Part shown: piece after piece, positions 6,473 to 63,323 of the stretch | How the letters are laid out: the number at the start of each line of letters is the position of its first letter | Position numbering within the stretch: the first letter of the stretch is position 1 | Assembly: GCA_964551605.1 (NCBI GenBank) | Contig: CAZKCV010000005.1 | Coordinates: forward strand, 7,104 to 71,103 | DNA length: 64,000 nt | Direction of reading: 5' to 3' | From: an uncultured Gammaproteobacteria bacterium | Lineage (GTDB): Bacteria > Patescibacteriota > Microgenomatia > Daviesbacterales > UBA10151 | Made by a program: the position numbers and the translations under genes | Notes under the pieces: model-generated | The model's input: only the letters and a program-made list of their open reading frames with translations | What the model was told of the DNA's origin: nothing | Databases searched by the model: none

Positions 6473-7429
6473 TTATCGATACTTAGACACATTCCGATTA
6501 TGCTCATCAAGGGTTTTAGCATAGTAGGAGTTGCCTTTTGAATCATGAAAATAATAAAGATAAGAGGTAGAAGAATCCGCATTAGCTACCGCTTTCAAGG
6601 AGGAAACAGACGGATTACTGATTGGGGCAGGCGGCAAACCGGTATGAAGGTAGGTGTTATAAAGAGAATCCACCTTTAGATCATCAAAGGTTAGATTTCT
6701 CTTCCACCAGCTTTTTTCTTTCTCTTGAAAACCAAGGGCGTATTGAACTGTCGCATCCGCATTAAGCGGCATATCTATTTTTAATCTTTTCAAAAGTATC
6801 GAGGCCACCATTTGCCTGACTTCATCTGAACGGGCCTCCCGTTCTACGATTGAAGCCAAAATTACCCCTTCTGCCTCAGTTAACCCTTGAGAGCGGATTT
6901 TTGAACGAAGCTCCGGAGTAAACCGGCTGTCAAAAGTATCTCTTAGAGTTTCTGCAATATAGCCGGCCGTAGCTTCCTTTGGAAAAAGATAGGTATCCGG
7001 AAACATATAACCCTCTTCTGTTAGTTCTAAGAATTTGGAATTTGGAATTTGGAATTTGGAATTTATTTCTGCAGCTATCTCTTCCACCCGCCACCCTTCT
7101 ATTAAGGTAATCCAGATATCTTCACTACCGGTTTGCAAAGTTCTGATAATTTCCGGTGTAGACATGGAAGAAGATAACTTATATGAGCCTGCTTGTAGTT
7201 TATTGGTCAAATTATTTTGCCTGACATAAATCTTAAAAGCCAGCTTTGATTTAATCAAGTTGTCTGCTTTTAGCCCTCGGGCAATTTCCGAAACACCGGC
7301 TCCTTTGGCTATAATAAATACTTGGGTATCTTTATTGGCAGAAACCGGGGCAAACTGACCCTCCCACCAACTCTTGGCAAAAAAAGTTATAATTATTATA
7401 AAGATTATAATTGTTATAAATCTTTTCAT
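6473..7429 (-). CDS. mltG: Endolytic murein transglycosylase MltG/YceG family
   Basis: N-terminal TM segment, YceG-like domain and C-terminal YNTYLHTGLPPAPISNP motif. It contains an in-frame (GAATTTG)4.x heptamer tract. Confidence 0.8.
   Translation of the reverse strand: MKRFITIIIFIIIITFFAKSWWEGQFAPVSANKDTQVFIIAKGAGVSEIARGLKADNLIKSKLAFKIYVRQNNLTNKLQAGSYKLSSSMSTPEIIRTLQTGSEDIWITLIEGWRVEEIAAEINSKFQIPNSKFLELTEEGYMFPDTYLFPKEATAGYIAETLRDTFDSRFTPELRSKIRSQGLTEAEGVILASIVEREARSDEVRQMVASILLKRLKIDMPLNADATVQYALGFQEKEKSWWKRNLTFDDLKVDSLYNTYLHTGLPPAPISNPSVSSLKAVANADSSTSYLYYFHDSKGNSYYAKTLDEHNRNVSKYR
7031..7065. repeat. Heptanucleotide tandem repeat (GAATTTG) x4 perfect + 1 imperfect inside mltG
   Basis: Direct reading of gaatttggaatttggaatttggaatttggaattta. 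On the minus strand it encodes IPNSKFQIPNSKF. Confidence 0.9.
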
Positions 7430-14861: not shown

Positions 14862-14939
14862 CTTCCACCTCGGAGGTGGAAGTGTAGCTACACCTCGGTA
14901 TGTCCACCCTTGAGGTGGATTCATATTGACACCTGCGGA
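14862..14939. repeat. Copy 1 of a ~80-bp dispersed repeat with nested perfect palindromes (CTTCCACCTC-G-GAGGTGGAAG, then GTGTAGCTACAC)
   Basis: A 40-nt stretch (cttccacctcggaggtggaagtgtagctacacctcggtat) is identical to 25424-25463. The rest, ending ...ccttgRggKgatt...tattgacaSctgcgga, is ~85% identical. Confidence 0.85.
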
Positions 14940-19445: not shown

Positions 19446-19527
19446 AACTTCTTTGTATCATGTATCAGGTATTATGTATAAAGGTTAATGCTACTTTCCC
19501 ACTATACTCTATACACTATACTTGATA

Positions 19528-25423: not shown

Positions 25424-25504
25424 CTTCCACCTCGGAGGTGGAAGTGTAGCTACACCTCGGTATATTCACTCTATGTTCACCCTTGGGGGATTTTGTATTG
25501 ACAG
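25424..25504. repeat. Copy 2 of the ~80-bp nested-palindrome repeat (see 14862-14939)
   Basis: gaaCTTCCACCTCGGAGGTGGAAGTGTAGCTACACCTCGGTAT...ccttgggggattttgtattgacagctgcgga. It lies between the divergent DHH-like gene and the Phd/RelE operon. Confidence 0.85.
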
Positions 25505-28013: not shown

Positions 28014-28034
28014 AGAATTAAGAATTAAGAATTT
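28014..28034. repeat. AT-rich heptamer tandem repeat (AGAATTA)x3 in the nusA-infB intergenic spacer
   Basis: agaattaagaattaagaattt. A related tract lies in the opposite orientation at 33187-33214 (aattcttaattcataattcttgattcta). Confidence 0.7.
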
Positions 28035-28054
28035 GAAAAATAATTTTCATAGCT

Positions 28055-29389
28055 TTATTCTTTATTCTTATTGCTTGATTCTTTCTCAGTATCAGCTTCT
28101 TCTGTCTCTCCGATAGCTTCTTCCAATTGCTCTTTTTCCTGCTCAGGATTTTCCTCATCAATGGCTTTTTCCAACACTTCGCCTGCCTCTTCTGCTGCTT
28201 CTTTTTCCGAAGTCTCAGTTGTATTCTCCTCAGCCTCAGCCACTTCTTGCTCTACCGCCTCTTTGGCCTCTTTCTTTTCTTCGTCTGCTGCAATGTTCGT
28301 GTCATCAGCAGCCTGAGCTGATGTGCTGGCAGGCTCCTCTTTTTTCTCACCAGTACCTTCAGCCGGCGCTTCTTCCGCTTTTTCTTCTTTCACCTCAGCT
28401 ACTTTTGGCTCTTCAACAATCTCCGGTTCCTCTGCCCCTTCAATATCTATCTTCCAACCGGTCAATTTGGCGGCCAACCTGACATTTTGTCCGCCTTTAC
28501 CGATTGCCAAAGACAATTGGCTTTGGGGAACTGTCACTGTGGCTATGTTATCTTTCTCATTTAATCTGACTTGAATATCCTTGGCTGGAGACAAAGCAGC
28601 AGCAATAAACCTGGCCGGATCATCAGAGTAACTAATAATGTCAATTTTTTCCTCACTCAACTCACCTATTACCGCCTGCACCCGGACTCCCTTTTGTCCA
28701 ACTAAACTGCCCACCGGATCAACCCCGTCTTGAGTAGAAATAGCGGCGATTTTAGTCCGGGATCCGGCCTCCCGGGCAATAACTTTAATTTCTACTGCCT
28801 CGGATTGAATTTCCGGCACTTCTAAGGCAAACAGCGCTTTCACCAAATTCGAATCAGACCGTGAAACAACTACTTCCGATCCTCTGCCGCCTTCACGTAT
28901 TTCTTTAACTAAGAACTTCAGCCGCTGGTTTTGATGATACATTTCAGTATGGACTTGTTCAGACGGAGGCAAAACCCCTTCCGCCCGGCCTAAATCAACA
29001 AAAAAGGTATTCCCTTCCTGCCTCTGGATAGTACCTGATATAACCGTGCCAACCTTACCCTCATACTCTGCCAAAATAGTCCCCCGTTCAGCCTCATTTA
29101 GCTTTTGCATTATCACTTGCTTGGCAATGGAAGCGGCAATTCGGGCAAAGCCGGGCGGGGTTACGTTATCTTTACCATGAAAAACGGAGATTTCACCGGT
29201 TACCGGATCAACCGCAGAAGTAAATTCTTCAAAATCTTCCGGAATAGGTTCATTTCGAAGCATTAAATCCTTTTTATAAGCAGCCAAAGCCGCTACCCGA
29301 ATGGCATCCAAGACCACTTCCACCTCTACCCCTTTTTCAGAGGCGATTTGATTTAATGCAGCAGCAAATTCAGTGCGTGCTTGTGCCAT
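28055..29389 (-). CDS. nusA: Transcription termination/antitermination factor NusA with a long acidic E/K-rich C-terminal tail
   Basis: N-terminal domain, S1 and two KH domains ([21 protein letters not shown]), followed by ~110 aa of E/K/A-rich low complexity. Confidence 0.9.
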
Positions 29390-32610: not shown

Positions 32611-32647
32611 TGACAAACAAATTACAATTTCTTAAATTTGTTTGTCA
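32611..32647 (-). promoter_or_regulatory. Intercistronic stem-loop between grpE and dnaK (13-bp AT-rich stem TGACAAACAAATT/AATTTGTTTGTCA, 11-nt loop), overlapping the grpE stop codon
   Basis: A perfect inverted repeat seen directly. Its right arm is continuous with the GTCATCCTGAG element that encodes the GrpE C-terminus. Confidence 0.5.
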
Positions 32648-33186
32648 TCCTGAGCGATTAGCGAAGGATCTCCTTCGGATTGTCCTTCCTGCTCATTTAT
32701 CTCCTTTCTTCCTACCACCACTGCCGCTGGCCTAAGTACCTTACTATTTAAAGTATACCCTTTCCTGACTACTTTTAATATTTTATTATCTTCCCCTACC
32801 TGTGTGTCAACTGCCTCGTGAAGGTTGGGATCAAATTGCCCGTCGGAGGCAATCTGCTCCAAACCCTCAATCTGTAAAACCTGATTCAACTCTTTAACTG
32901 CTAATTCTACTCCCCGAAACCAACCGGACTGCCTGTCTGTCTCATTTGCTCCAGCCAAAGCCTGTTCCAGATGATCCAATGCCGGCAGGATCTTAGTAAG
33001 AAGCTCACCGGTACCCCACCGGGTCAGCTCTGACCTGCCTTCTGCCACTCTTTTTTCCAAATTATGGTAATCAGCCACTGCTCTTTTTAGCTGATTTTCC
33101 ATCTGCACACTTAACTGTTTGACAGAATCGAGCTCGTCTTGTAATTGCTTAAATTCTTCTGTTTGTGTATTTTGCTTTTTTCCCAT
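32632..33186 (-). CDS. grpE: Nucleotide exchange factor GrpE
   Basis: Coiled-coil N-terminus and GrpE core (LDHLEQAL, DPNLHEAV). The last ~15 codons are encoded by a GTCATCCTGAGCGATTAGCGAAGGATC repeat element. Confidence 0.85.
   Translation of the reverse strand: MGKKQNTQTEEFKQLQDELDSVKQLSVQMENQLKRAVADYHNLEKRVAEGRSELTRWGTGELLTKILPALDHLEQALAGANETDRQSGWFRGVELAVKELNQVLQIEGLEQIASDGQFDPNLHEAVDTQVGEDNKILKVVRKGYTLNSKVLRPAAVVVGRKEINEQEGQSEGDPSLIAQDDKQI
32642..32690. repeat. GTCATYCTGAG-family element (TTGTCATCCTGAGCGATTAGCGAAGGATCTCCTTCGG...) forming the 3' end of grpE
   Basis: ~26/30 identity with the intergenic element at 63331-63360 (TTGTCATTCTGAGTGATTAACGAAGAATCTCC). It shares its head and CGAAG core with 52803-52830 and its GAGCGATTAGCGA core with 23677-23689. 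Confidence 0.7.
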
Positions 33187-33214
33187 AATTCTTAATTCAT
33201 AATTCTTGATTCTA
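33187..33214. repeat. AT-rich heptamer tandem repeat (AATTCTT-like x4) in the hrcA-grpE spacer
   Basis: aattcttaattcataattcttgattcta, the opposite-orientation counterpart of 28014-28034. Confidence 0.6.
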
Positions 33215-37260: not shown

Positions 37261-37689
37261 TCATTTTTTATCATCTATTCCAAACCTGCTAAATTTATTC
37301 TTTTTGTACTGAATATCAAAACTGAAAATTGTATTAAGCCCCATCTTTTTCATAATTGCCATATTAATACAATCTGTAAACCTGGAATTTTTAGAGGTTT
37401 GTTTTTCAAAAATATCTAGCCCTTCCCTTCTTAAAACAGAATCCACTTCTATTATCTCTATTTCACTCTTTAAAACCTCTTCGGCGAATTGAACCGCTGT
37501 CTGTAAACTGGTATTCTGGCTTAAAACTGTCACTGCTTCTCCAAATGCTGGATCTGAGGTAATCAAAACAAATTTTTGTCTGTCAATTTCATCTCTGGTT
37601 GAAACTGCTTTTTTGTAGTTGGGATCGAACTGATCAACTAAAGCTACAAAGGCATCAGCATCAACGAGTATTTTCTTTACGATGTTCAT
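37261..37689 (-). CDS. vapC: PIN-domain toxin VapC
   Basis: 142 aa with ILVDADAFVAL (first acidic residues) and C-terminal FTDCINMAIMKKMGL..IFSFD. Confidence 0.75.
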   Translation of the reverse strand: MNIVKKILVDADAFVALVDQFDPNYKKAVSTRDEIDRQKFVLITSDPAFGEAVTVLSQNTSLQTAVQFAEEVLKSEIEIIEVDSVLRREGLDIFEKQTSKNSRFTDCINMAIMKKMGLNTIFSFDIQYKKNKFSRFGIDDKK

Positions 37690-37996
37690 TGATGAATTTT
37701 TCTACTCTTTTCACCTCTGCTTTAGTTAGAACAGGTCTGTTTTTGCCATAATTGGGAGATTTATCACCATAAAGATAATCAAAAAGATTGGTGGATAAGT
37801 CTCCTGGGCTCTTTTTTGCCATTCCAGTAATCTTAAACAAAACAGAAGCAGTGGAGTGTTGCTGATTATTTTTAACCCTTAAACTCTTCTCTAAAAGATT
37901 TCTAATTACTTCTGCTACGCTTTTACCTTCCTGTCTGGCAACAATCTCAAGTTCACGATCTATTTGCGGTGTTAAATATAACTGTTTTCTTATCAT
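37661..37996 (-). CDS. vapB: Ribbon-helix-helix (CopG/VapB-like) antitoxin
   Basis: N-terminal RHH KQLYLTPQIDRELEIVARQEGKSVAEVIRNLLEKSL. It overlaps vapC by 29 nt. Confidence 0.55.
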   Translation of the reverse strand: MIRKQLYLTPQIDRELEIVARQEGKSVAEVIRNLLEKSLRVKNNQQHSTASVLFKITGMAKKSPGDLSTNLFDYLYGDKSPNYGKNRPVLTKAEVKRVEKFINEHRKENTR

Positions 37997-38020
37997 ACAT
38001 TATACATTATACATTATTTG

Positions 38021-43226: not shown

Positions 43227-44144
43227 ATGAAGGAATTTATCAGTAAATCTAAAATCCCGACCCTTTTGGGACTTAGTATAATTTTTTTCGGGCTGGTAGG
43301 AGGAGTTTATCTAGTACTCAGGGAACAAACATTTCTTTCCCAGGCTGCCCCTAACTTCACGCCCCAAAACGTCACTATTACCAATATCGCCGATAACTCA
43401 GTAGTAATTTCCTGGCAGACAAACTCCGTCGCTCCTTCTTTTATTACTTTCGGACAAAATAGCCCAAGCGGGCAAACTGCCTCAGATGACCGTGACGAAG
43501 CTGCCCCCAAGCCCCGCTTAACTCATTATGTCACCCTTAAAAATCTTCTGCCTAAGACTGGTTATCAATTTAAGATTACTTCCGGCAAACTGACTTCTGA
43601 TGTCCAAAGATTTGAAACTGCCACGCCCTTAACCAGCCAAACCGGTTTCACGCCAATCATAGGTTCTGTACTTGACGGGAATACCCCCTTAGAAGAAGGT
43701 GTGGCTTTTCTTTTTTTACCGGAAGCTACTGTCCAGTCTTCAGTAATTAAGGCAGGAAATTTTCTAATTCCCCTTACACAAATCCGCCGTGCTGACCTTA
43801 CTGATGCATACCAACTGACAGAAGGAATGATTGTTAAGCTGACTGTTAAATCAGTAAAAGGCGAGGCAAATTTGGAATTCATGCTGCGAGCCGATTCCTC
43901 CCCATTACCTCCGCTAAAATTGGGTGAAAGTGTAGACTTAACTATACAAGCGCCTTCGTCTCCGGCTTCGCCGGATCCTAGCCGATATGACTTAAACGGG
44001 GATGGAATAATAAATACTACTGACTATACCACTCTTCTGCAAAACTTAGGTGAAAATCCTAAAAATGAAAGGGCCGATATCAACGGAGATGGGGTAGTAA
44101 ATCAACAAGACCGGGATTTAATGTCCCAAAAACTTAAAGAGTAA
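43227..44144 (+). CDS. Membrane-anchored surface protein with an FN3-like domain and C-terminal dockerin-like Ca-binding repeats
   Basis: N-terminal TM, FN3-like VTITNIADNSVVISWQTN...YQFKITSG, and C-terminal DLNGDGIINTTDYTTL / DINGDGVVNQQD repeats. Confidence 0.5.
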   Translation: MKEFISKSKIPTLLGLSIIFFGLVGGVYLVLREQTFLSQAAPNFTPQNVTITNIADNSVVISWQTNSVAPSFITFGQNSPSGQTASDDRDEAAPKPRLTHYVTLKNLLPKTGYQFKITSGKLTSDVQRFETATPLTSQTGFTPIIGSVLDGNTPLEEGVAFLFLPEATVQSSVIKAGNFLIPLTQIRRADLTDAYQLTEGMIVKLTVKSVKGEANLEFMLRADSSPLPPLKLGESVDLTIQAPSSPASPDPSRYDLNGDGIINTTDYTTLLQNLGENPKNERADINGDGVVNQQDRDLMSQKLKE

Positions 44145-44781
44145 AATCTCCCTTAAACTTATTTACCAGCAAAAATTCTGCCTGGGGTTTTTCTAAGAGG
44201 CCGGATTTAAGCTTGAAATCAATTTCCAAAAGATCCTTATAGAGGTTCTCTATACCTTCTGTGCTAAATCTGGCTCGTTGCCTAGCTAGTTTTTTGCGGA
44301 CAAAATCCGGGGCATTCTTAGGGGTAGCTACTAAATTACGAAGCAGGTAAAAAGCCATTGTCAGGCAGTAATGAATATCAAACCCCGCCTGTTTTATTTT
44401 TTCCATCTCCAAAAAAGCATTCTGGTCTTTGGCTGCTAAATAATCCAGAAACGGAAATACTGAAATTTCTCTTGCCTCCGGAAAAAATAGCGGCTCAAAC
44501 CCAGGCCATTTTTTTGTATCTACCTCATGATCAAACCACAAAATTAGGGTATATGATATAGAGTATAGGGTATAGTTAGATAATTCTTCTGAAGGATTTT
44601 CTAAGATAATTAATTGTTGGTCGGGAAAAAGAGGGGATGTTACCAAACTTCCTTTGATAACTTGCAAATCCGTTCCTTCTTCAAAAACTACTATATTATC
44701 CTGACTGAACTTTTTTTTGAGTTCCTGAAGTTTTCTCCTGGAAGCGTTAATTGCGGGCCCGTGCAGCAGCTGTAGCGTCAT
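44134..44781 (-). CDS. holA: DNA polymerase III delta subunit-like (HolA), short form; start uncertain (ORF open to 44844)
   Basis: The C-terminal block FSTEGIENLYKDLLEIDFKLKSG resembles the HolA C-terminus and the N-terminal region has a HolA-like pattern. It overlaps the LCP gene's 3' end. Confidence 0.4.
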   Translation of the reverse strand: MTLQLLHGPAINASRRKLQELKKKFSQDNIVVFEEGTDLQVIKGSLVTSPLFPDQQLIILENPSEELSNYTLYSISYTLILWFDHEVDTKKWPGFEPLFFPEAREISVFPFLDYLAAKDQNAFLEMEKIKQAGFDIHYCLTMAFYLLRNLVATPKNAPDFVRKKLARQRARFSTEGIENLYKDLLEIDFKLKSGLLEKPQAEFLLVNKFKGDFTL

Positions 44782-45994
44782 ATTCGGTGATTTCTCCTGT
44801 GAGTATCTTTCTAACATATTCATGGACGGTTGAAAAGTCATCATCTTCCGAGATTAATACATAAGCCCCTCCAAAACTTCCCCGCGGGGGGTTAACCAGA
44901 AGAGATGATTTATTATCAGGCAGGCCTATTTTTGGAGAATCATCCAGTATAAAGCTCCTTGTCCGGTCAATCTTGCCGGCTAGTTTATAAAATTCTAAGG
45001 TATCTTTAATAGGTACATCTGTATCAATGCTTTTTCCCAGGGTGCTGATCAAATCTCCTATCCTTTGAGGATTGGCCAAAGTTTCCAGGGAAAGTATTTT
45101 ACCCTTAACTGCCTCCAGCACTTTTTGCTGCCTTTTTGACCTGGCAAAATCAGACCCCTCATTATTAGTTCCATGCCTGGATCTGGTAAAACTCAAAGCT
45201 ACTGCCCCGTCCATATGCATTTCTCCTGACTTAAAACTTATATGCTCATAGCGACAACTGAAATATTTAATTCCCTTATCTTCTTCTGCAGCATCTGTGG
45301 CGATTTTACCTTCTTTATCAATTAAGACCTTTTTTTTACCCGCTTCGATATTTAGATTTTTTGCTTCCTCTTCATTAAACTCCATTTCCTTTTCTTCCAT
45401 TCCGCACAAATCATTTTCTTTACCTTCAATCGGGTATAAATAATCATCAAAGGGATTCTCTACTAACACATCTATTCCGTCTATGGCATCTATTGCCTGC
45501 ACAAAACCTCTGAAATCCACTCTTAGGGCATAGTGAATTGGGATGTCCAGGATATTACCTACCACTGTCTTGGTTAGCCCCAGCCCGTCCCCTTCGGATA
45601 AACCTTTTTGATAAACTGCGTTAACCTTGCTCTGCGTAAAAGGTAACCATAAATCCCTCGGGAGGGAAATTAAATCAACTTCATTAGCTTTTAAGTTATA
45701 TGAAGCTACCATGATGGTATCAGTCAAGTTGCTGCCGTCATGCCGTCCCCCGGCAATTCCTAAAAATAAGACATTTACTCTGCCATCTGAAGATTTAAGG
45801 GAGGTACCGGAGATAATGGAAGTCACATAAGAGCCGGTTTCGGAAAAGGTAGTCAGAAAAATAGCCAAAGCCATAAATATACCAATAACTAACATCCAGG
45901 GGAAAAGTTTCTTAAAAATTTTTTCTACTCTTCTTAGCTTTAAGGGGTTATCTTTTTCGCTTTTTCCGAGTCTTAAAGGTTGCAAAGTTTTCAC
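44747..45994 (-). CDS. LCP (LytR-CpsA-Psr) family cell-envelope phosphotransferase
   Basis: N-terminal TM, the LCP core VLFLGIAGGRHDGSNLTDTIMVASYN...ISLPRDLW and the conserved Arg residues. Confidence 0.8.
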   Translation of the reverse strand: MKTLQPLRLGKSEKDNPLKLRRVEKIFKKLFPWMLVIGIFMALAIFLTTFSETGSYVTSIISGTSLKSSDGRVNVLFLGIAGGRHDGSNLTDTIMVASYNLKANEVDLISLPRDLWLPFTQSKVNAVYQKGLSEGDGLGLTKTVVGNILDIPIHYALRVDFRGFVQAIDAIDGIDVLVENPFDDYLYPIEGKENDLCGMEEKEMEFNEEEAKNLNIEAGKKKVLIDKEGKIATDAAEEDKGIKYFSCRYEHISFKSGEMHMDGAVALSFTRSRHGTNNEGSDFARSKRQQKVLEAVKGKILSLETLANPQRIGDLISTLGKSIDTDVPIKDTLEFYKLAGKIDRTRSFILDDSPKIGLPDNKSSLLVNPPRGSFGGAYVLISEDDDFSTVHEYVRKILTGEITEYDATAAARARN

Positions 45995-46000
45995 TTATTA

Positions 46001-46690
46001 TTACTCCACCACAGCTTGACAAATTTTAATAAATTCTTCCGTATCTAAAGAGGCATTGCCTACTAAAACTCCGCTGATATTTTCCTCTTTGATAAAATCA
46101 GTAACGTTTCCTGAATTAACACTGCCTCCGTAAAGTACTTCCATATCAGGTCTGACTTGTTTAAAAGAGCTTGCCATATTATTAGCATCTTCCGGGGTGT
46201 CTGCTCTTCCAGTCCCAGGAGTATTAGTTAATCCGGTACTAATTGCCCACACCGGTTCATAAGCTACCAACTTACAACCATCAGGTACTGGTGTTTCACT
46301 ACCTTGTACGCATACCAGCGGCGTAATGTCATTTGCTAAAGCCTGTTCTGTTTTTTTCGCTACTATCTCATCTGTTTCACTAAAATTTTCCCGTCGTTCA
46401 CTATGACCCAAAATCACCAAATCAATCAATCCTTTTAATAGTCCTGCTGATTCTTCACCGGTATAAGCACCCACCCCAAAAGGAGACAAATCCTGAGCAC
46501 CTGTTAACAAAGGGAAACCACCAACGGTAATAGTCTTTTTAACCTCAGCAAGATCGCTAAAAGTCGGACAAACCACCACTTTTAAATTATCCTGCTTAGG
46601 AATTTTCGGGCCAACCTGGGAAATCCAGTCTAAAGCCTCGCTAATATTTTTATTGCTTTTCCAGTTAGCAATAATCCAAATATCCTTCAT
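46001..46690 (-). CDS. tpiA: Triosephosphate isomerase
   Basis: IIANWKSN, VILGHSERR, AYEPVWAISTG and YGGSV motifs. Confidence 0.85.
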   Translation of the reverse strand: MKDIWIIANWKSNKNISEALDWISQVGPKIPKQDNLKVVVCPTFSDLAEVKKTITVGGFPLLTGAQDLSPFGVGAYTGEESAGLLKGLIDLVILGHSERRENFSETDEIVAKKTEQALANDITPLVCVQGSETPVPDGCKLVAYEPVWAISTGLTNTPGTGRADTPEDANNMASSFKQVRPDMEVLYGGSVNSGNVTDFIKEENISGVLVGNASLDTEEFIKICQAVVE

Positions 46691-46790
46691 AATTTCTAAT
46701 TTTTAATTACTAATTTCTAATCAAATCCCAATGACTAAATTTCTAAACTAGACATTAGTCATTATTTAGATCAATTAGGTTAATTAGTAA

Positions 46791-49701: not shown

Positions 49702-51402
49702 CTATGAGATATTTGTCAATAGTTTTAAAAGTTCGGCTTTGGAAATAACCCCAATTTTTCTGCCCACTTCTTTCCCGTCTTTTAGGACAATGTAGGTTGG
49801 GATGCTCATCACTCCATGCTCACTGGCTTTAGCTTGATTATCATCAACATTAATTTTTTCTATTTCCACCTTACCAGCCAGCTCTTTTTCCAATTCTTCA
49901 ATCACAGGCTCCATTACTTTACAGGGCCCACAATTATGAGAGACCATCCCATTAGTTATAACGGTATGAGGGTCGCCGACTGTAATACCTATTACATCAC
50001 GACTATCTGCTTCTTCAATTGATAAGACTCTTTCCCACAATAAGTTTCCTTGTTGACGCTGTTCCAACCATTTTATAAATAAAGCCTCACCGCCTTTAGC
50101 AGGATACACTACTTGAGTATCTCTATTTGCATAATTCCAGCTAACTATTGTGCCAACTGGGATTTGCAAACTCTCAGCAATTTGGTTACTGCTGACTCCT
50201 AAGGCTAACTGCTGAAGAGCAATTTGCTTTGCTTGAATATAACGATTACGTTCAAAAAGTCTGTACTGTAAAAACTCCCTGATAAAAGGAATGCTAACAT
50301 TCTTTGATCTAGCATAAGCGTAGCCAATACTAGCTAAGTTAAATAGCGATTGATAGTCAGTAGCTACTCTGAGTGAAATAATTACCCCGTCTTCATCATC
50401 ACTGCTTGATATATCCCTTACTTCAACTCCCAATTGTTCAAGTAATAATCCCAGTTGTTTCGCGTAAAGAATTCCCTCTCTCTCTAAATATTTTTCTTTA
50501 TGGAATTCAATTGCATTAACAGAAAATCTAGCATCATGAGAACTGCTACCTGCATGTTTCATTTGATAAGCAATTTTGCATCCATCTCCACCCAACCAGC
50601 CACTCAGAAAAGCTTTCTTGACTAAAATATCTCCCTCCATAATCCAATCTGGGATAAAATAAGCCTGGTTCTTTTTTCTGCCTTCTGGACAACCCAAAGC
50701 TTTTAGCAGAAAAAACAATGTTCTATTGAGATTGCGGCAACGTAAAATGTGTATGGTAAATTTTCTCTCACCAATTTGACGATCTTTAACTTGCCTTTTG
50801 ATTTCTAGTTTATCAAAACCTAGAATCTGTAGATCCTCTTTTATAGTCCTGGCATCATCTTCTGTGCCCACAAAGAAATGTGTCTCGTAAATATTGTGTT
50901 TTAAATCCTCATATAGATAACCATCAGTCATCACAAACCCAAGTAGTCTGGCTAAAATGGGTAGCCGTGAATTATTAGCTTTCAGAGGCAACAAACCCAA
51001 TTGAGTAAGTATCTTATCCGCAAAGATATTGCCAACAGAAGTCAGAATTACCTGATCATTATCTGATTCAAAAACTGGATTATCCTGAGCTGGATTAACC
51101 AGAATACTATCACCAATTATTAACTCTCTCAACTTCTTAAAACCTTCTTGAGTTAAGGCTAAATGATTGATATCTCCTATTAATTCTCTACCTGTTTCCA
51201 AAACTATTTTTTTAGAAAGTGCATTTTTAAAAATTCTTATCTTTTGGACTTTTTGAATTGATTGTTTTTTGGTCTTTGGATCAATTGCGACTAATTTTTG
51301 TCCTACCTGAACTTGTAAAGCTTTTATATAACCATTTTCAGTTAAAACCGGAGTTTCCGGATCAATACACCAAGGTGCCCAAAAATCCAAAAGTTTCATC
51401 AT
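49702..51402 (-). CDS. trxA: Thioredoxin interrupted by a 479-aa intein (precursor 566 aa; mature Trx ~87 aa)
   Basis: N-extein MMKLLDFWAPW plus C-extein CGPCKVMEP...IPTYIVLKDGKEVGRKIGVISKAELLKLL reconstitute a canonical thioredoxin (DFWAPWCGPCK). The insert begins with C and ends ...VSHN before the +1 Cys. Confidence 0.85.
   Translation of the reverse strand: MMKLLDFWAPWCIDPETPVLTENGYIKALQVQVGQKLVAIDPKTKKQSIQKVQKIRIFKNALSKKIVLETGRELIGDINHLALTQEGFKKLRELIIGDSILVNPAQDNPVFESDNDQVILTSVGNIFADKILTQLGLLPLKANNSRLPILARLLGFVMTDGYLYEDLKHNIYETHFFVGTEDDARTIKEDLQILGFDKLEIKRQVKDRQIGERKFTIHILRCRNLNRTLFFLLKALGCPEGRKKNQAYFIPDWIMEGDILVKKAFLSGWLGGDGCKIAYQMKHAGSSSHDARFSVNAIEFHKEKYLEREGILYAKQLGLLLEQLGVEVRDISSSDDEDGVIISLRVATDYQSLFNLASIGYAYARSKNVSIPFIREFLQYRLFERNRYIQAKQIALQQLALGVSSNQIAESLQIPVGTIVSWNYANRDTQVVYPAKGGEALFIKWLEQRQQGNLLWERVLSIEEADSRDVIGITVGDPHTVITNGMVSHNCGPCKVMEPVIEELEKELAGKVEIEKINVDDNQAKASEHGVMSIPTYIVLKDGKEVGRKIGVISKAELLKLLTNIS
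49933..51369 (-). mobile_element. Intein with LAGLIDADG homing endonuclease domain inserted at the thioredoxin WC|GPC active site
   Basis: Block A CIDPETPVLTENGYIKAL, two dodecapeptide motifs LLGFVMTDGYL and FLSGWLGGDGCK, and terminal block DVIGITVGDPHTVITNGMVSHN followed by Cys+1. Confidence 0.8.
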
Positions 51403-51479: not shown

Positions 51480-53486
51480 ATGCCCAACTTCCTCTTAGAT
51501 GACCTAAATCCTATCCAAAAACAAGCTGTCCAAGCCACCGAAGGTCCAGTTCTAATTTTAGCGGGGGCGGGTTCCGGTAAAACTAAAGTCTTAACCCACC
51601 GGGTGGCTTATTTAATCCAAGATAAAGGTATACCGCCGGAAAATATCCTATGTCTGACTTTCACCAATAAAGCTGCTGGTGAAATGATGGACCGGATTAG
51701 GAAACTTCTCCAAACTACCAACTACCAACTACCAACTACTCCCATCATGGGCACATTCCATAGCTTTTGCGCCAGGATCCTGCGCCGTGAGGGTCGGACC
51801 CTGGGACTCCCACCGGGATTTGCCATCTATGACGAAGGTGACACGCTGGACGCAGTAAAAGAAGCCATGGGCAATTTAAACATCCCCACCCAAAAAACTT
51901 CCCCCCACTCTGTCCGGACTACCATTTCCGGCGCTAAAAATGAACTCATCTCTTCCCTGGAATACCCCCAATATGCCAGGGGTTACTTTCAGGAAACGGT
52001 CGCCAAGATTTACCTGGAATACCAGAAAATTCTAGAGCGTAATCACGCCCTGGACTTTGATGACCTACTACTGTATGTCATTAGGTTATTCCAGGCCGAA
52101 CCCGCTATTTTAACCCGCTACCAAATTCAATTCAAATACATCTTAATTGACGAATACCAGGACACCAACCCGGCTCAATATCTAATCAGTAAGTATTTAG
52201 CCAACCGCCACAAAAACATCTGCGTGGTGGGAGATGCCAGCCAATCAATTTATTCCTTCCGGGGAGCTGATTTCCGCAATATTGTGAATTTTCAAAAAGA
52301 CTACCCGAATACTAAAGTCTTTAATCTTGAGCAAAATTACCGTTCTACTCAAAATATTCTGGATGCGGCCTTTGCAGTCATTTCCAAAAATAAATCCCAT
52401 CCAATCTTAAAGCTTTGGACTGATAACGATAGCGGAGAGAAAATTGAAGTGGTGGAAGTGAGAAATGAGATTGAGGAAACCTTATTTATCCTAAATACCA
52501 TCGCTCACCTCCGAGGTGAGCTTAAGACGACACCAGGATCACACCTCGGAGGTGTAACAAAATTATCTGATTTTGCCATCCTTTACAGAACCAATGCCCA
52601 ATCCAGATCTTTAGAAGAACAATTTCTAAAAGCCGGCATTCCATATCAACTAGTCGGCGGGGTCAGTTTCTATGCCAGAAAGGAAATTAAAGATGTTTTA
52701 GCTTATCTTCGCTTACTGCAAAACCCCAAAGATTCCGTATCCTTAAAACGGGCAGAGAAAATCGGTAAAGGAAGGCTCACCAAAATCATGGAACTCCAAA
52801 ACGTCATTGCGAGCGAAGCGAAGCAATCTGGCCCAGATAATAACCCCACCCAGATTGCTTCGTCGCCCCGTACCGTACGGTACGGGGCTCCTCGCAATGA
52901 CGACTTGTCTTGCACTACCCTTGAACTTCTGGACAAGATCCTAGAGGTAGCAGGTTATTTGACTTACCTGGACGATAGTACCGAAGAAGGAAAAATCCGG
53001 ATAGAAAACGTCAAAGAGCTACGCTCTGTAGCAGAAGAATTTCCTGATCTAACTAACTTTTTAGAAAACGTTGCTTTAATGGAAGCTTCCGATACACCGA
53101 AACACCGAAACACTGAAACGCTGAAAAAAGATGCCGTTACCTTAATGACCTTGCATTCCGCCAAAGGCTTAGAGTTTCCGGTCATTTTTATGGTTGGCAT
53201 GGAAGAAGGTCTATTCCCCCATTCAAGGTCTATGTTAGATCTTCATGAACTGGAAGAAGAAAGAAGACTTTGTTATGTTGGCATTACTAGGGCTAAAGAA
53301 AAATTGTACTTAACTTATACCAAGCAAAGGTTATATTTTGGCCAAAGAAGCAATAATTTAGTATCCAGATTTTTAGGAGATATCCCTCAGGATTTAATTT
53401 TAAGCAATACCAATTTTCGGGATCAGGATAGCTTTTTAGATGATGTTACTAGTAATATCAATGAGGACGATTGGCTAAAGATTTGA
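51480..53486 (+). CDS. uvrD: ATP-dependent DNA helicase UvrD/PcrA family, carrying several in-frame repeat insertions
   Basis: Walker A AGAGSGKTKVLTHRVAYLI, motifs TFTNKAAGEM, GTFHSFC, DEYQDTNPAQY, VGDASQSIYSFRGAD, TLHSAKGLEFPVIF, and VGITRAKEKLYLTY. Confidence 0.85.
   Translation: MPNFLLDDLNPIQKQAVQATEGPVLILAGAGSGKTKVLTHRVAYLIQDKGIPPENILCLTFTNKAAGEMMDRIRKLLQTTNYQLPTTPIMGTFHSFCARILRREGRTLGLPPGFAIYDEGDTLDAVKEAMGNLNIPTQKTSPHSVRTTISGAKNELISSLEYPQYARGYFQETVAKIYLEYQKILERNHALDFDDLLLYVIRLFQAEPAILTRYQIQFKYILIDEYQDTNPAQYLISKYLANRHKNICVVGDASQSIYSFRGADFRNIVNFQKDYPNTKVFNLEQNYRSTQNILDAAFAVISKNKSHPILKLWTDNDSGEKIEVVEVRNEIEETLFILNTIAHLRGELKTTPGSHLGGVTKLSDFAILYRTNAQSRSLEEQFLKAGIPYQLVGGVSFYARKEIKDVLAYLRLLQNPKDSVSLKRAEKIGKGRLTKIMELQNVIASEAKQSGPDNNPTQIASSPRTVRYGAPRNDDLSCTTLELLDKILEVAGYLTYLDDSTEEGKIRIENVKELRSVAEEFPDLTNFLENVALMEASDTPKHRNTETLKKDAVTLMTLHSAKGLEFPVIFMVGMEEGLFPHSRSMLDLHELEEERRLCYVGITRAKEKLYLTYTKQRLYFGQRSNNLVSRFLGDIPQDLILSNTNFRDQDSFLDDVTSNINEDDWLKI
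51713..51740. repeat. Heptanucleotide tandem repeat (AACTACC) x3 perfect + 1 imperfect, in frame within uvrD (encodes TTNYQLPTTP between helicase motifs Ia and II)
   Basis: aactaccaactaccaactaccaactact read directly. Related CTACCA-type heptads occur in the FemAB-like gene (59408-59476) and sbcD (62894-62914). Confidence 0.85.
52503..52557. repeat. Two CACCTC-N-GAGGTG palindromes (GCTCACCTC-C-GAGGTGAGC and ACACCTC-G-GAGGTGT) in frame within uvrD; same core as the 14862/25424 repeat
   Basis: Direct reading. They encode HLRGELKTTPGSHLGGVTKL, a segment absent from typical UvrD alignments at this position. Confidence 0.7.
52803..52901. repeat. 99-bp in-frame palindromic (MITE-like) element in uvrD, with perfect 11-bp TIRs GTCATTGCGAG / CTCGCAATGAC, an internal 13-bp inverted repeat and a 22-bp perfect palindrome
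   Basis: gtcattgcgagcgaagcgaagcaatctgg...ccagattgcttcgtcgCCCCGTACCGTACGGTACGGGGctcctcgcaatgac. It is exactly 33 codons (VIASEAKQSGPDNNPTQIASSPRTVRYGAPRNDD) and belongs to the GTCATYC family. Confidence 0.85.
53098..53127. repeat. Octamer-like tandem repeat ACCGAAAC/ACCGAAAC/ACTGAAAC/GCTGAAAA in frame within uvrD
   Basis: accgaaacaccgaaacactgaaacgctgaaaa encodes TPKHRNTETLKK just before the conserved motif V region. Confidence 0.6.
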
Positions 53487-58719: not shown

Positions 58720-59826
58720 ATGGATCTCCGGCCAATCTTGCTACAACAAAAAGCAGCATATAACAAGCTAGTTACCCATGTTATCCAATCTTGGGAGTGG
58801 GGAGAGTTTAGAAAATCCTTGGGAATTCCAGTATTACGGTATAGCATTTACCAAAACGGGAAATTATCAAAGGCTTTTCAGCTAACCTTACATAAAATCC
58901 CTTTTACCAACCAATATGTTGGTTATTTACCGAAAGGTCCTTTTCCGGATAAAGATTTAACAGAAGCCTTAAAAAAAGTTGGCAAGGAAAATAATTGCGC
59001 CTTTATAAAAATTGAGCCGGATATAAAACAGGTTACAGGCAATAAGCAGAGCTTCTCTATGAGTAAGCAGAGCTTGCGACCTAACGGTCTTAGGTTACAG
59101 GTTGCAGATGGATTCATTTCATCCCCCAAGCCATTGTTTACCAAATACAACTTTTTATTAGACCTGACCAAATCCGAAGAAGAACTTTTGAAAAGTATGC
59201 ATCCTAAAACCAGATACAACATACGAGTGGCGGAAAAACATGGGGTTAAAGTAGAAGAAAGAACTGATGACGAGGCTTTTAAGATTTATTTAAAGCTTTA
59301 TTTTGATACTACCAAAAGACAAGGCTATCACGGCCACAATGAGAATTACCACCGAGAGGTTTGGAAAACTCTCAAAAACGCAGGGATGGCTCGTTTGCTG
59401 ATTGCTTACTACCAACTACCTGCCCGCAATGCTAGCGCAAGCGCTGCAGGCGGGCCACCTACCACCTACCACCTAACCGCCTGGATGCTGTTAAATTTCA
59501 AGGGCACTTTATATTACCCTTACGGCGGCTCCTCTATAGCCCACAGGGAAGTGATGGCTAATAATTTGGTGGCCTGGGAAGCTATTAAACTTGGTAAAAA
59601 ATTAGGGCTTAAAAAGTTTGACATGTGGGGAGCACTCGGCCCTAATGCTGACCCCAAAGACCTTTGGTTTGGATTCCATAAATTCAAACAAGGATACGGG
59701 GGACAACTAGTGGAGTATATCGGCACCTATGATTTAGTCTTCAATTGGCCGGTGTATTGGATGTTTACTTTAATAGATAAATTAACACCTCTTAAGGTTT
59801 TTCTGCTAAAATTGCTGGGAAAATAA
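58720..59826 (+). CDS. FemAB-family aminoacyltransferase (peptidoglycan interpeptide-bridge formation), with an in-frame repeat insertion
   Basis: N-terminal LVTHVIQSWEWGEFRKSLG (FemAB FLQSWEWGE motif) and a ~368-aa double-GNAT architecture. The insertion at 59408-59476 encodes YYQLPARNASASAAGGPPTTYHLTAW. Confidence 0.55.
   Translation: MDLRPILLQQKAAYNKLVTHVIQSWEWGEFRKSLGIPVLRYSIYQNGKLSKAFQLTLHKIPFTNQYVGYLPKGPFPDKDLTEALKKVGKENNCAFIKIEPDIKQVTGNKQSFSMSKQSLRPNGLRLQVADGFISSPKPLFTKYNFLLDLTKSEEELLKSMHPKTRYNIRVAEKHGVKVEERTDDEAFKIYLKLYFDTTKRQGYHGHNENYHREVWKTLKNAGMARLLIAYYQLPARNASASAAGGPPTTYHLTAWMLLNFKGTLYYPYGGSSIAHREVMANNLVAWEAIKLGKKLGLKKFDMWGALGPNADPKDLWFGFHKFKQGYGGQLVEYIGTYDLVFNWPVYWMFTLIDKLTPLKVFLLKLLGK
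59408..59476. repeat. Composite in-frame insert: ACTACCA x2, a GC-rich palindrome GCCCGC...AGCGCAAGCGCT...GCGGGC, then (CACCTAC)x2 + CACCTAA
   Basis: tactaccaactacctgcccgcaatgctagcgcaagcgctgcaggcgggccacctaccacctaccacctaa read directly. Confidence 0.75.
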
Positions 59827-62084: not shown

Positions 62085-63323
62085 ATGAAACTACTGCATT
62101 TTTCTGACCTTCATATTGGCATGGAAAATTACTCTAAATTGGATCCGGAAACAGGGCTTTCCACCAGGCTGCTGGATTTTTTCAATACTTTTGATTTTAT
62201 AGTTGAAACAGCCTTTAAGGAAGATGTTGATGCAGTGATCTTTGCCGGGGATGCCTATAAAACCCGTGACCCTAATCCCACCCAACAAAGGGGCTTTGGA
62301 CAGAGGATTGCCAAAATAGCTAAAAAAATACCGGTGGTTTTAGTGGTGGGAAATCATGACACCCCCAATGCCGAAGGCAAAGCCAACACCTTGGATATTT
62401 ACTCAGCCCTGGAGATAGATAATGTCTGGGTCTCCCGGCATCCGGAGATTTTGCAAATTCCCACCAAATCAGGCAACCTGCAAGTAGTAACTCTCCCCTG
62501 GCTTCACAAGAACGACTACAAAACCATTGCCGAAAAACTAAAATTACTCTATGACAAAATTAAACCTCCGGCATCCGCCGGACCTGCTATTTTAGCTTCC
62601 CATGCTGAAATAACCGGGGCGCAATTTGGCAGTGAAAAAGGTATGGCCATCACCAATGATGTTACCATCCCCCTGCCGCTGCTACAGGATAAAAGGCTAA
62701 ATTATGTGGCGCTGGGCCATATCCACAAACACCAAGTGCTGTCAAAACCAGGCGACTCCCTCTTAATAGTTTACTCCGGCTCGCCCCAGCGGGTAGATTT
62801 TGGAGAAGAAAAAGAAGAAAAAGGGATCTGTCTGGTAGAAATAGGGGGTAACCCGTCGCACGTAGCACGTAGCAAATTAACTGCAACCTACAACCTACAA
62901 CCTAAGAGCGGCAGCTCGCAAGCTTCGCTTACAACCTTCCGTTTCATTCCCACCAATGCCCGCAAATTTCTAACCATTACCATAAGCCTCGATCCCAAAG
63001 ACACCGACCCCACCCAAACCATTATTAAAGAAATTGAAAGCAAAGATATCAAAGACAAAATAGTCAAAGTAGTAATCAATATTCCGGCTGAGTGTGAGCA
63101 GGAAATAGAAATGGACCAGATTAAAAAAGTTTTGAAGGATGCCAATTTTATTGCCGGCATTTCCCGAAATGTTGAAAGGGTTGAACGGGCCAGACTGGAA
63201 ACCTCCGAGGTAGAAAGCCTTACCCCTATCCAGGCTTTGCAAAAATATTTTGAAAGTAAAAAATATTCCCCTGAAAAACAGAAAAAATTAGAACAATACG
63301 CTGCCCAGTTACTGGAAAGTTAA
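62085..63323 (+). CDS. sbcD: Nuclease SbcD (Mre11 homologue) with in-frame heptamer-repeat insertions
   Basis: MKLLHFSDLHIG, GDAYKTRDP, VVGNHD and GHIHKHQV phosphoesterase motifs. The track ORF starts 38 codons upstream of the conserved start. Confidence 0.8.
   Translation: MKLLHFSDLHIGMENYSKLDPETGLSTRLLDFFNTFDFIVETAFKEDVDAVIFAGDAYKTRDPNPTQQRGFGQRIAKIAKKIPVVLVVGNHDTPNAEGKANTLDIYSALEIDNVWVSRHPEILQIPTKSGNLQVVTLPWLHKNDYKTIAEKLKLLYDKIKPPASAGPAILASHAEITGAQFGSEKGMAITNDVTIPLPLLQDKRLNYVALGHIHKHQVLSKPGDSLLIVYSGSPQRVDFGEEKEEKGICLVEIGGNPSHVARSKLTATYNLQPKSGSSQASLTTFRFIPTNARKFLTITISLDPKDTDPTQTIIKEIESKDIKDKIVKVVINIPAECEQEIEMDQIKKVLKDANFIAGISRNVERVERARLETSEVESLTPIQALQKYFESKKYSPEKQKKLEQYAAQLLES
62855..62940. 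repeat. Composite in-frame insert in sbcD: (CACGTAG)x2, (CAACCTA)x3 and an AAGCTT-centred GC-rich near-palindrome
   Basis: cgcacgtagcacgtagcaaattaactgcaacctacaacctacaacctaagagcggcagctcgcaagcttcgcttacaacc encodes SHVARSKLTATYNLQPKSGSSQASLTT. Confidence 0.8.

Follow-up and report, generated by a model that had tools for sequence, protein, structure and literature searches.

A bacterial microsatellite that lies inside a gene and has a unit of non-triplet length is generally read as a mark of phase variation, and it is not expected to persist in housekeeping genes. The stretch of DNA examined here, a 64,000-nucleotide (nt) window from an uncultured groundwater bacterium, raises the question of why perfect tandem repeats of 7 nt nevertheless sit within its genes for a UvrD helicase, an SbcD-like phosphoesterase, the endolytic transglycosylase MltG and a FemAB-like peptidyltransferase. 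A preliminary description of the sequence had stated, correctly, that the gain or loss of one unit shifts the reading frame, and had offered two readings of the tracts: a phase-variable switch giving a mutator or recombination phenotype, or a single short mobile element inserted in frame. Our comparison of the window with related loci points elsewhere. The tracts, coding and intergenic alike, are probably slippage-prone heptamer microsatellites that have been filtered by selection on frame and length.

Period-7 arrays in the window and across the candidate phyla radiation

The host of the window was placed, via its uvrD relatives, in Candidatus Daviesbacteria (Microgenomates, candidate phyla radiation, CPR), with best species-level matches of 79% protein identity. 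The comparison set comprised 101 non-redundant CPR loci (1.5 Mb), drawn from Daviesbacteria, other Microgenomates and more distant CPR, and 27 non-CPR loci (0.46 Mb), all of them around uvrD; individual loci or contigs are given L-numbers (e.g., L047). Perfect period-7 arrays were called with cuts on the number of self-matching bases (at least 10 and at least 13 in the window), with 100 dinucleotide shuffles as controls, and a second, looser detection (the lag-7 scan) collected regions whose bases match those 7 nt further on.

At the cut of at least 10 self-matching bases the window holds 8 perfect period-7 arrays compared with 0.11 expected from the shuffles, and at the cut of at least 13 it holds 6 compared with 0.0. 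Other periods were sparse at the 10-base cut (0-1 arrays each for periods 4-6, 8 and 10-12, and two for period 9), and the lag-7 scan returned 8 regions against 0-1 at other lags, the double period of lag 14 excepted. Every tract that had been reported in uvrD, mltG, the FemAB-like gene and sbcD was located within its open reading frame (ORF), and the Pfam matches agree with the gene identities that had been assigned (Table 1). Only the second FemAB-like tract, given as (ACTACCA)2, needs correcting: it is present at 59408-59421, with one mismatch, and is not perfect. The preliminary description had also overlooked a decayed tract within a holA-like gene, as well as seven heptamer arrays that lie between genes.

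The same period stands out in the related loci. The CPR loci contained 88, 51 and 20 perfect period-7 arrays at three stringencies, whereas any other period between 4 and 12 gave at most 29, 4 and 1; the non-CPR loci gave 3, 0 and 0 at period 7 and at most 8, 2 and 1 at other periods. The lag-7 scan found 122 regions in the CPR loci, with no more than 19 at any other lag, and 3 regions in the non-CPR loci, where other lags reached 8. Daviesbacteria and the remaining Microgenomates had 61-65 arrays per Mb, whereas CPR outside the Microgenomates had 36. The period-7 excess is a property of the lineage, not of one locus, and is best explained by a tendency to 7-nt tandem duplication common to Daviesbacteria and other Microgenomates and, less strongly, to other CPR. 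Long open frames, which make up 88% of the sampled sequence, contained 76 of the 88 perfect arrays and 99 of the 122 lag-7 regions, and the 76 in-ORF arrays fell into 58 unit classes.

An assembly artefact was considered and excluded by other assemblies carrying matching arrays: an NCBI metagenome-assembled genome (MAG; GCA_016187055.1, 99.96% identical and gapless) has the copy numbers of the window in both the FemAB-like gene and sbcD, and a 100% identical Logan contig from run SRR4343428 confirms the FemAB-like array. The copy-number comparison as a whole was drawn from assembled sequences (MAG, Logan contigs and related loci). An exact-protein look-up yielded three Logan contigs and one MAG contig as the only same-population sequences, and these were either identical at the arrays or ended within or near them; Logan contigs stop at the 34-nt mltG array, as expected if the repeat exceeds the word length of the assembler (k=31 assumed). 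A scan of metagenome contigs for same-species alleles returned only other species, at no more than 76-82% amino-acid identity.

Frame, copy number and unit turnover at recurrent sites

Each of the 76 in-ORF arrays found in roughly 100 related loci keeps the reading frame; the other 12 arrays lie outside long ORFs, and at none of them did a gene prove to be disrupted. The genic arrays have no stop codon in any of the three frames, and each is translated into a peptide that repeats every seven residues. Within the window the genic tracts comprise 2.4-4.9 units and lie at codons 78-312 of uvrD, mltG, the FemAB-like gene, sbcD and holA; over all in-ORF arrays the range is 2.4-5.3 units. Growth by multiples of 21 nt was rejected as a general rule, as loop lengths differ by 3, 12 and 21 nt and perfect in-ORF tracts form a continuum of lengths between 17 and 37 nt. 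No frameshifted orthologue was found at an array among the related loci, and the genic arrays show no sign of on/off switching. One holA orthologue (L009:2117-2400) is broken away from its (AGCTTTC)x5 array, at a run of 15 T and further downstream, and represents a pseudogene or else the product of homopolymer assembly errors in a low-coverage co-assembly.

In mltG the tract is not an insertion but replaces sequence of conserved length: the 21-residue segment is equally long in 100 of 106 orthologues, and most of the 120 orthologues listed have exactly 318 residues. At the DNA level six species each carry about 4.8 perfect units at a common site and in a common register, and the five units concerned, AATTCCA (the window and L166), AATTCAA (L168), AGTTCAA (L167), AATTCAG (L169) and AGTACCA (L170), differ by one to three substitutions. 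The corresponding peptides (NSKFQIP, NSKFKIQ, SSKFKVQ, NSEFRIQ and STKYQVP) are exactly those predicted when these 1-3 unit substitutions are read through in three frames. Of 100 mltG orthologue peptides, 10 could be encoded in full by a perfect heptamer array and 32 agree with a heptamer-encoded peptide in at least 9 of 11 residues (shuffled maximum, 7). Residues spaced 7 apart co-vary, with 1.86 identities of 4 compared with 1.05 +/- 0.065 for shuffled partners. In the AlphaFold model of the protein (mean pLDDT 91.5, about 92-94 over the array segment) residues 122-133 are predicted to run from the end of one helix (115-126) through a turn of three residues into the beginning of another (130-136). 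The notion that arrays are confined to disordered loops was rejected for mltG on the basis of this model.

The uvrD array occupies a loop bounded by helicase motif Ia and GTFHS (the Ia-Ib loop), which is 4 residues longer than that of PcrA. Across orthologues this loop measures 30 nt, 42 nt (four units) or 63 nt (three units more). The 30-nt loop is an "IGQLPTQP" form with no array and is carried by many Daviesbacteria; the units of the 42-nt loops include AACTACC, AACCATG and CAACCTC, and CTCCCAG occurs in a 63-nt loop. Units of the 42-nt loops are more alike within a species (identity 0.65) than between species (0.39). Where the DNA repeat has decayed the peptide is kept, as TTNYELQTTP or TTNYELPTIP in one group (L005, L117 and L039) and ending in NHEP in another (L013, L038 and L022). 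Persistence of the heptad-encoded peptide as protein sequence rather than as DNA repeat had been named beforehand as a sign against phase variation, and it is what the decayed TTNY loops display.

A parallel picture emerged for holA, whose loop between "ILENP..." and "ILWFDH" holds perfect arrays in some species and decayed ones in others. At least 8 distinct units occur among orthologues at this site, the perfect ones being CCAACTA, TTTCACT, CAATTGT, CTTTACC, TCATCAA, CTTATCG, CTATACC and ACCCTAT, according to species. Over 24 species, unit identity in the holA loop was 73% within and 40% between species, irrespective of whether units of equal or different index were compared, and lag-7 identity was 0.70 compared with 0.22-0.29 at other lags.

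The loops of the FemAB-like gene and sbcD follow this pattern too. The FemAB-like loop has a baseline of about 4 residues in orthologues and holds ACTACCA x4.3 in L047 and CCACCTA in L139. In the window the FemAB-like gene encodes its native YYQLP with the codons ACTACCAACTACC; the L047 array is an expansion of these codons, seeded by the sequence ACTACCAACTACCT. In sbcD the loop between GICLVEI and FIPTNAR measures 105 nt in the window, compared with a baseline of 30-33 nt, and is occupied elsewhere by TCCACCA or AATTTCA arrays or by hairpin elements; SQVARIK, which resembles the SHVARSK of the window, occurs in L146 and L044 with no perfect repeat. A further FemAB-like segment (59038-59076, plus strand) is a 21-nt direct duplication encoding NKQSFSM/SKQSL. 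We had considered its sequence, GNKQSFSMSKQSL, as a heptamer array and set it outside the phenomenon, as the duplication has no lag-7 periodicity; the same site holds heptamer arrays in L001, L007, L027, L034, L039, L116 and L118.

Taken together, these comparisons show that arrays arise from local sequence, such as the FemAB-like YYQLP codons, and that they do so at recurrent sites: the uvrD Ia-Ib loop, the loops of the FemAB-like gene and sbcD, whose hydrophobic flanks are conserved, the holA loop and the helix-turn-helix segment of mltG. Existing arrays stay uniform, in that a substitution found in one unit is present in every copy of that species, with copy number fixed and the length constant or nearly so, and arrays that are no longer kept uniform decay to ordinary sequence in which the peptide persists. 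Concerted evolution of this kind implies that a realignment-type turnover operates at the tracts. The earlier view of the tracts as slippage substrates is upheld to this extent, as species have different perfect units at a common site and register, the mark of slippage- or conversion-type turnover.

Table 1. Heptamer arrays of the window and the genes that contain or adjoin them.
Feature	Coordinates	Strand	Remarks
uvrD array (AACTACC)x3.9	51713-51739	+	Perfect, 27 nt; encodes QTTNYQLPTT
uvrD/pcrA helicase gene	51480-53486	+	668 aa; Pfam UvrD-helicase 3.9e-90, UvrD_C 5.2e-70; PDB PcrA 5e-52
mltG array (AAATTCC)x4.9 on the sense strand, (GAATTTG)x4.9 on plus	7031-7064	-	Perfect; encodes INSKFQIPNSKF, residues 122-133
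mltG/YceG endolytic transglycosylase gene	6473-7429	-	318 aa; Pfam YceG 5.5e-79
FemAB-like array (CCACCTA)x3	59455-59475	+	Perfect; encodes PPTTYHL, in loop between LLIAYY and LTAWMLLNF
FemAB-like proto-array ACTACCAACTACCT	59408-59421	+	One mismatch; native YYQLP codons
FemAB-family peptidyltransferase-like gene	58720-59826	+	368 aa; Pfam FemAB 7.3e-38
sbcD-like array (GCACGTA)x2.4	62858-62874	+	Encodes SHVARSK
sbcD-like array (CAACCTA)x3	62884-62904	+	Perfect; encodes ATYNLQPK
sbcD/Mre11-like phosphoesterase gene	62085-63323	+	Pfam Metallophos 6.9e-16; gene call from MAG contig L163; likely start ATG at 62085
holA-like array, CTATACC-like on the sense strand	44545-44575	-	Decayed; encodes NYTLYSISYTL
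holA-like (DNA polymerase III delta) gene	44134-44844	-	236 aa; Pfam DNA_pol3_delta_C 2.4e-06, 28.0 bits (cutoff 27)
Intergenic (AATGTAT)x3.3	37995-38017	-	Overlaps start codon of ORF 37661-37996
Intergenic (AGAATTA)-type	33186-33213	-	Imperfect; abuts ATG of ORF 32632-33186
Intergenic (GAAATTA)-type	46690-46721	-	Imperfect; abuts ATG of ORF 46001-46690
Intergenic (AGAATTA)x2.9	28014-28033	unassigned	
Intergenic (CTTTATT)x2.4	28053-28069	unassigned	
Intergenic (TGTATCA)	19454-19479	unassigned	Imperfect
Intergenic (CTATACT)	19502-19522	unassigned	Imperfect

Origin and maintenance of the arrays

The slippage account can be set out as a sequence of steps. Local 7-nt slippage would create the arrays, and selection on frame and length would filter those that survive. 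Uniformity could then be restored by out-of-register realignment during replication or repair, through slippage or short-patch conversion; cycles of three-unit gain and loss are a possible alternative, one that the 42- and 63-nt uvrD loops fit. The preference for 7 nt may reflect the footprint of the polymerase, the explanation attributed to Mrazek et al. (2007) in two later papers (PMC4679880, PMC4692102). Single-unit slips must presumably make null alleles on occasion, with no indication that these serve as a switch.

Several observations weigh against this account. Homogenisation at constant copy number is hard to obtain by simple slippage, since a change of one or two units in either direction is a frameshift; three-unit changes, which add or remove 7 residues, were seen only in uvrD, and the difficulty extends to mltG, where homogenisation would have to proceed with no viable intermediates of other length. 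Were frameshifted intermediates to arise transiently, populations would have to contain some null alleles, and out-of-frame alleles may be present at low frequency. According to its model, the mltG array encodes a confidently folded helix-turn-helix segment, so a tolerant floppy loop fails as a general explanation. Of the 8 lag-7 regions in the window, 5 lie between genes or at the edge of one, and the wider sample was centred on uvrD, so that orthologous hot spots were counted in many species and the coding/intergenic split is not a genome-wide estimate.

The composition of the units is a further difficulty, as a sequence-blind slippage model predicts neither their depletion in sense-strand G nor the over-use of one class. 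On the sense strand, in-ORF units contain 10% G and 24% C, compared with 24% G in the genes and an expectation of about 25%, and 40 of the 76 have no G at all (15.5% expected). Avoidance of stop codons was rejected as the cause, since it predicts 25% G where 10% is seen. With rotations pooled, 8 of the 76 in-ORF arrays belong to the AACTACC class against an expected 0.06%, an over-use of about 180-fold, and members of this class occur in the uvrD, holA and FemAB-like genes of several genomes. The similarity of CTACCA-type units across genes, on which the preliminary description had remarked, is statistically real by this count, and the repeated appearance of AACTACC-type units is genuine and still calls for an explanation. 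Units at different sites are slightly closer within a genome (mean distance 2.97) than between genomes (3.23; permutation p = 0.027), a comparison confounded by base composition.

We consider it unlikely that the arrays are contingency loci in which gain and loss of units reversibly switch uvrD, sbcD, mltG, the FemAB-like gene and holA, with mutator, recombination or cell-wall phenotypes. The non-triplet unit, through which one-unit slips frameshift, is found as this reading requires, in five ORFs and also at start codons, and perfect arrays outlast large evolutionary distances beside saturated flanks, so that turnover or selection must keep the tracts perfect. What is missing is polymorphic copy number that includes off alleles (0 of 76 arrays out of frame, with mltG constant) and, equally, long tracts at the 5' end or promoter of surface, host-interaction or restriction-modification genes: the tracts are of no more than 5.3 units, lie in mid-gene and are hosted by housekeeping genes. 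Of these genes holA is normally essential. Moreover, the uvrD array is missing in many species, and two or three assemblies from the same population agree on copy number. The closest precedent, neuO of Escherichia coli K1, makes the difference plain. It is a phage-borne O-acetyltransferase gene for surface modification with (AAGACTC)n at its 5' end, in 3-53 copies, and is on only at copy numbers that are multiples of three; 65.6% of genomes carry it out of frame, and one culture contained minor 20- and 22-copy alleles next to a dominant allele of 21 copies (PMC13001214). The CPR arrays share with neuO an in-ORF heptamer that is translated as a heptad peptide and whose frame depends on copy number, but they have 2.4-5.3 copies in mid-gene, in housekeeping genes, are all in frame, and keep their copy number (about 4.8 units in mltG of six species). 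The switchable mutator that had been envisaged for uvrD and sbcD is not supported by this comparison.

The other readings fare no better. That CTACCA-type arrays are a mobile or ectopically spreading in-frame element, passing from one gene to another either through insertion or through gene conversion of one array by another, is very unlikely in our judgement: it draws on the recurrence of the AACTACC class in uvrD, holA and FemAB-like genes and on the within-genome similarity of units, a signal that is weak and compositionally confounded, and we reject it because the mltG array replaces sequence of conserved length, units at one site vary between species by stepwise substitutions, the arrays have no terminal repeats, target duplications or palindromes, and the L047 array grew from native codons. 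The single mobile element suggested earlier is set aside on the same grounds. A dedicated enzymatic writer (reverse-transcriptase-, telomerase- or primase-like) adding heptamers at preferred sites would accommodate the extreme period specificity and the biased composition, G-poor on the sense strand with CTA-containing, A/C-rich units common, but dozens of unrelated units within and between genomes are incompatible with one template, heptamer excess is also seen in unrelated bacteria, and no candidate enzyme was found, though no search for one was made; we hold such a writer to be highly improbable. Selection for 7-residue peptide repeats, with the DNA periodicity a by-product of 21-nt duplication, is an explanation to which we give hardly any credence. 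It could claim the structured mltG segment of conserved length and the plain FemAB-like duplication at 59038-59076 with no lag-7 signal, yet the 7-nt register of the DNA contradicts it: the period is 7 nt rather than 21, third codon positions included (lag-7 identity 0.70), amino-acid changes between species are those predicted from a few 7-nt unit substitutions in three frames, and intergenic arrays have the same period. A broader form of active maintenance, either as reversible frameshift switches in housekeeping genes for bet-hedging by ultra-small symbionts or through trans-acting, sequence-biased writing or conversion that carries favoured units, such as the AACTACC type, from one locus of a genome to another, seems to us quite unlikely; what leaves room for it is the constant-copy perfect arrays beside saturated flanks, the G depletion, the roughly 180-fold over-use of one class and the weak within-genome similarity.

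Known heptamer systems, neighbouring elements and significance

Three of the intergenic arrays touch start codons: two abut them (...AAGAATTATG and ...AGAAATTATG) and the array at 37995-38017 overlaps one. This (AATGTAT)n array contains TGTATAAT words, which are extended -10-like, and lies downstream of TTGACA. In Haemophilus influenzae, heptanucleotide repeats upstream of hmw1A vary in number and so change its expression; these and the CPR arrays are alike as 7-nt slippage substrates, and by analogy the intergenic arrays here could in principle alter promoter or 5' untranslated region spacing. Two intergenic arrays of other loci, (ACCCTAA)n at L044:1056-1075 and (CCCTAAT)n at L010:1151-1169, resemble eukaryotic telomere-type repeats, probably by coincidence.

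Mrazek, Guo and Shah (2007), as summarised in two later papers, found that among prokaryotic repeats of 5-11 nt no class is as abundant as the heptamers. Known examples include the cyanobacterial STRR, GGGAATC of Xanthomonas, GGGGA(T/C)T of Nostoc and TAACTGA of Beggiatoaceae (PMC4679880, PMC4692102), the last of which, found upstream of start codons, the start-codon arrays of the window recall. Such simple sequence repeats (SSRs) and the CPR arrays both show a lineage-specific excess of period 7 over neighbouring periods and turnover of length and sequence at one locus between relatives, and in both some arrays lie directly upstream of start codons (three in the window). Known heptamer SSRs are mostly intergenic with one or a few dominant units, whereas the CPR arrays have dozens of units (58 classes) and, in the sampled loci, lie mostly inside conserved housekeeping genes (76 of 88 in long open frames), are translated in three frames and conserve their copy number. 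Our literature search found no paper joining SSRs with the candidate phyla radiation, nor did it turn up coding microsatellites with a non-triplet unit whose position and copy number are conserved while the unit evolves in concert.

A different kind of in-frame repeat shares two of the host genes. The palindromic elements of Rickettsia were reportedly described by Ogata and colleagues in 2000 as selfish DNA in protein-coding genes. They and the CPR arrays are alike as repetitive DNA tolerated in frame at permissive sites of housekeeping genes, but the Rickettsia elements are dispersed palindromes of 100-150 nt inserted as units, whereas the heptamer arrays are local tandem repeats with site-specific units and no palindrome. 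In uvrD itself, at 52803-52905 (plus strand, approximately residues 442-475), there is an in-frame, 103-nt nested palindrome encoding VIASEAKQSGPDNNPTQIASSPRTVRYGAPRNDD, with a predicted RNA fold of -64.9 kcal/mol (z = -10.7). The core of this palindrome, CATTGCGAGCGNNGCGAAGCAATC, also occurs in L002, L006, L011 and L139, and in L006, L007, L119 and L100 the sbcD loop contains hairpin inserts of a related kind; short-read contigs break at the palindrome, Logan contigs beginning exactly at 52800. Unlike the heptamer arrays, this palindrome fits the description of an in-frame palindromic element and by analogy looks like a selfish element of the Rickettsia type; uvrD and sbcD genes host both kinds.

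Two further features of the window were recorded. The thioredoxin-domain ORF upstream of uvrD (49702-51402, minus strand, 566 residues) appears to be interrupted by an intein, residues 32-490 matching Pfam Intein_splicing at 35.5 bits, just under the curated cutoff of 35.8. A 49-nt direct repeat (14862-14910 and 25424-25472), with copies 94% identical and 10.5 kb apart, contains the short palindrome CTTCCACCTCGGAGGTGGAAG, and both copies overlap or adjoin ORF ends. Rfam and tRNA scans of the window gave no matches.

Two practical points follow for work on metagenome-assembled genomes: annotating tracts of this kind as contingency loci would be misleading, and the arrays break short-read assemblies. 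While an excess of heptamers in bacteria was already known, coding arrays that are conserved in position, fixed in copy number and evolving in concert appear to be a new aspect of it in CPR. Here a whole candidate-phyla lineage carries such arrays in genes for DNA repair, replication and the cell wall, at positions that are conserved. The arrays offer a natural test case for the 7-nt slippage preference that has been noted since 2007 and never explained. In each genic array a single DNA unit is under constraint from three reading frames simultaneously, and the arrays are a source of loop insertions and of protein sequence turnover in very small genomes.

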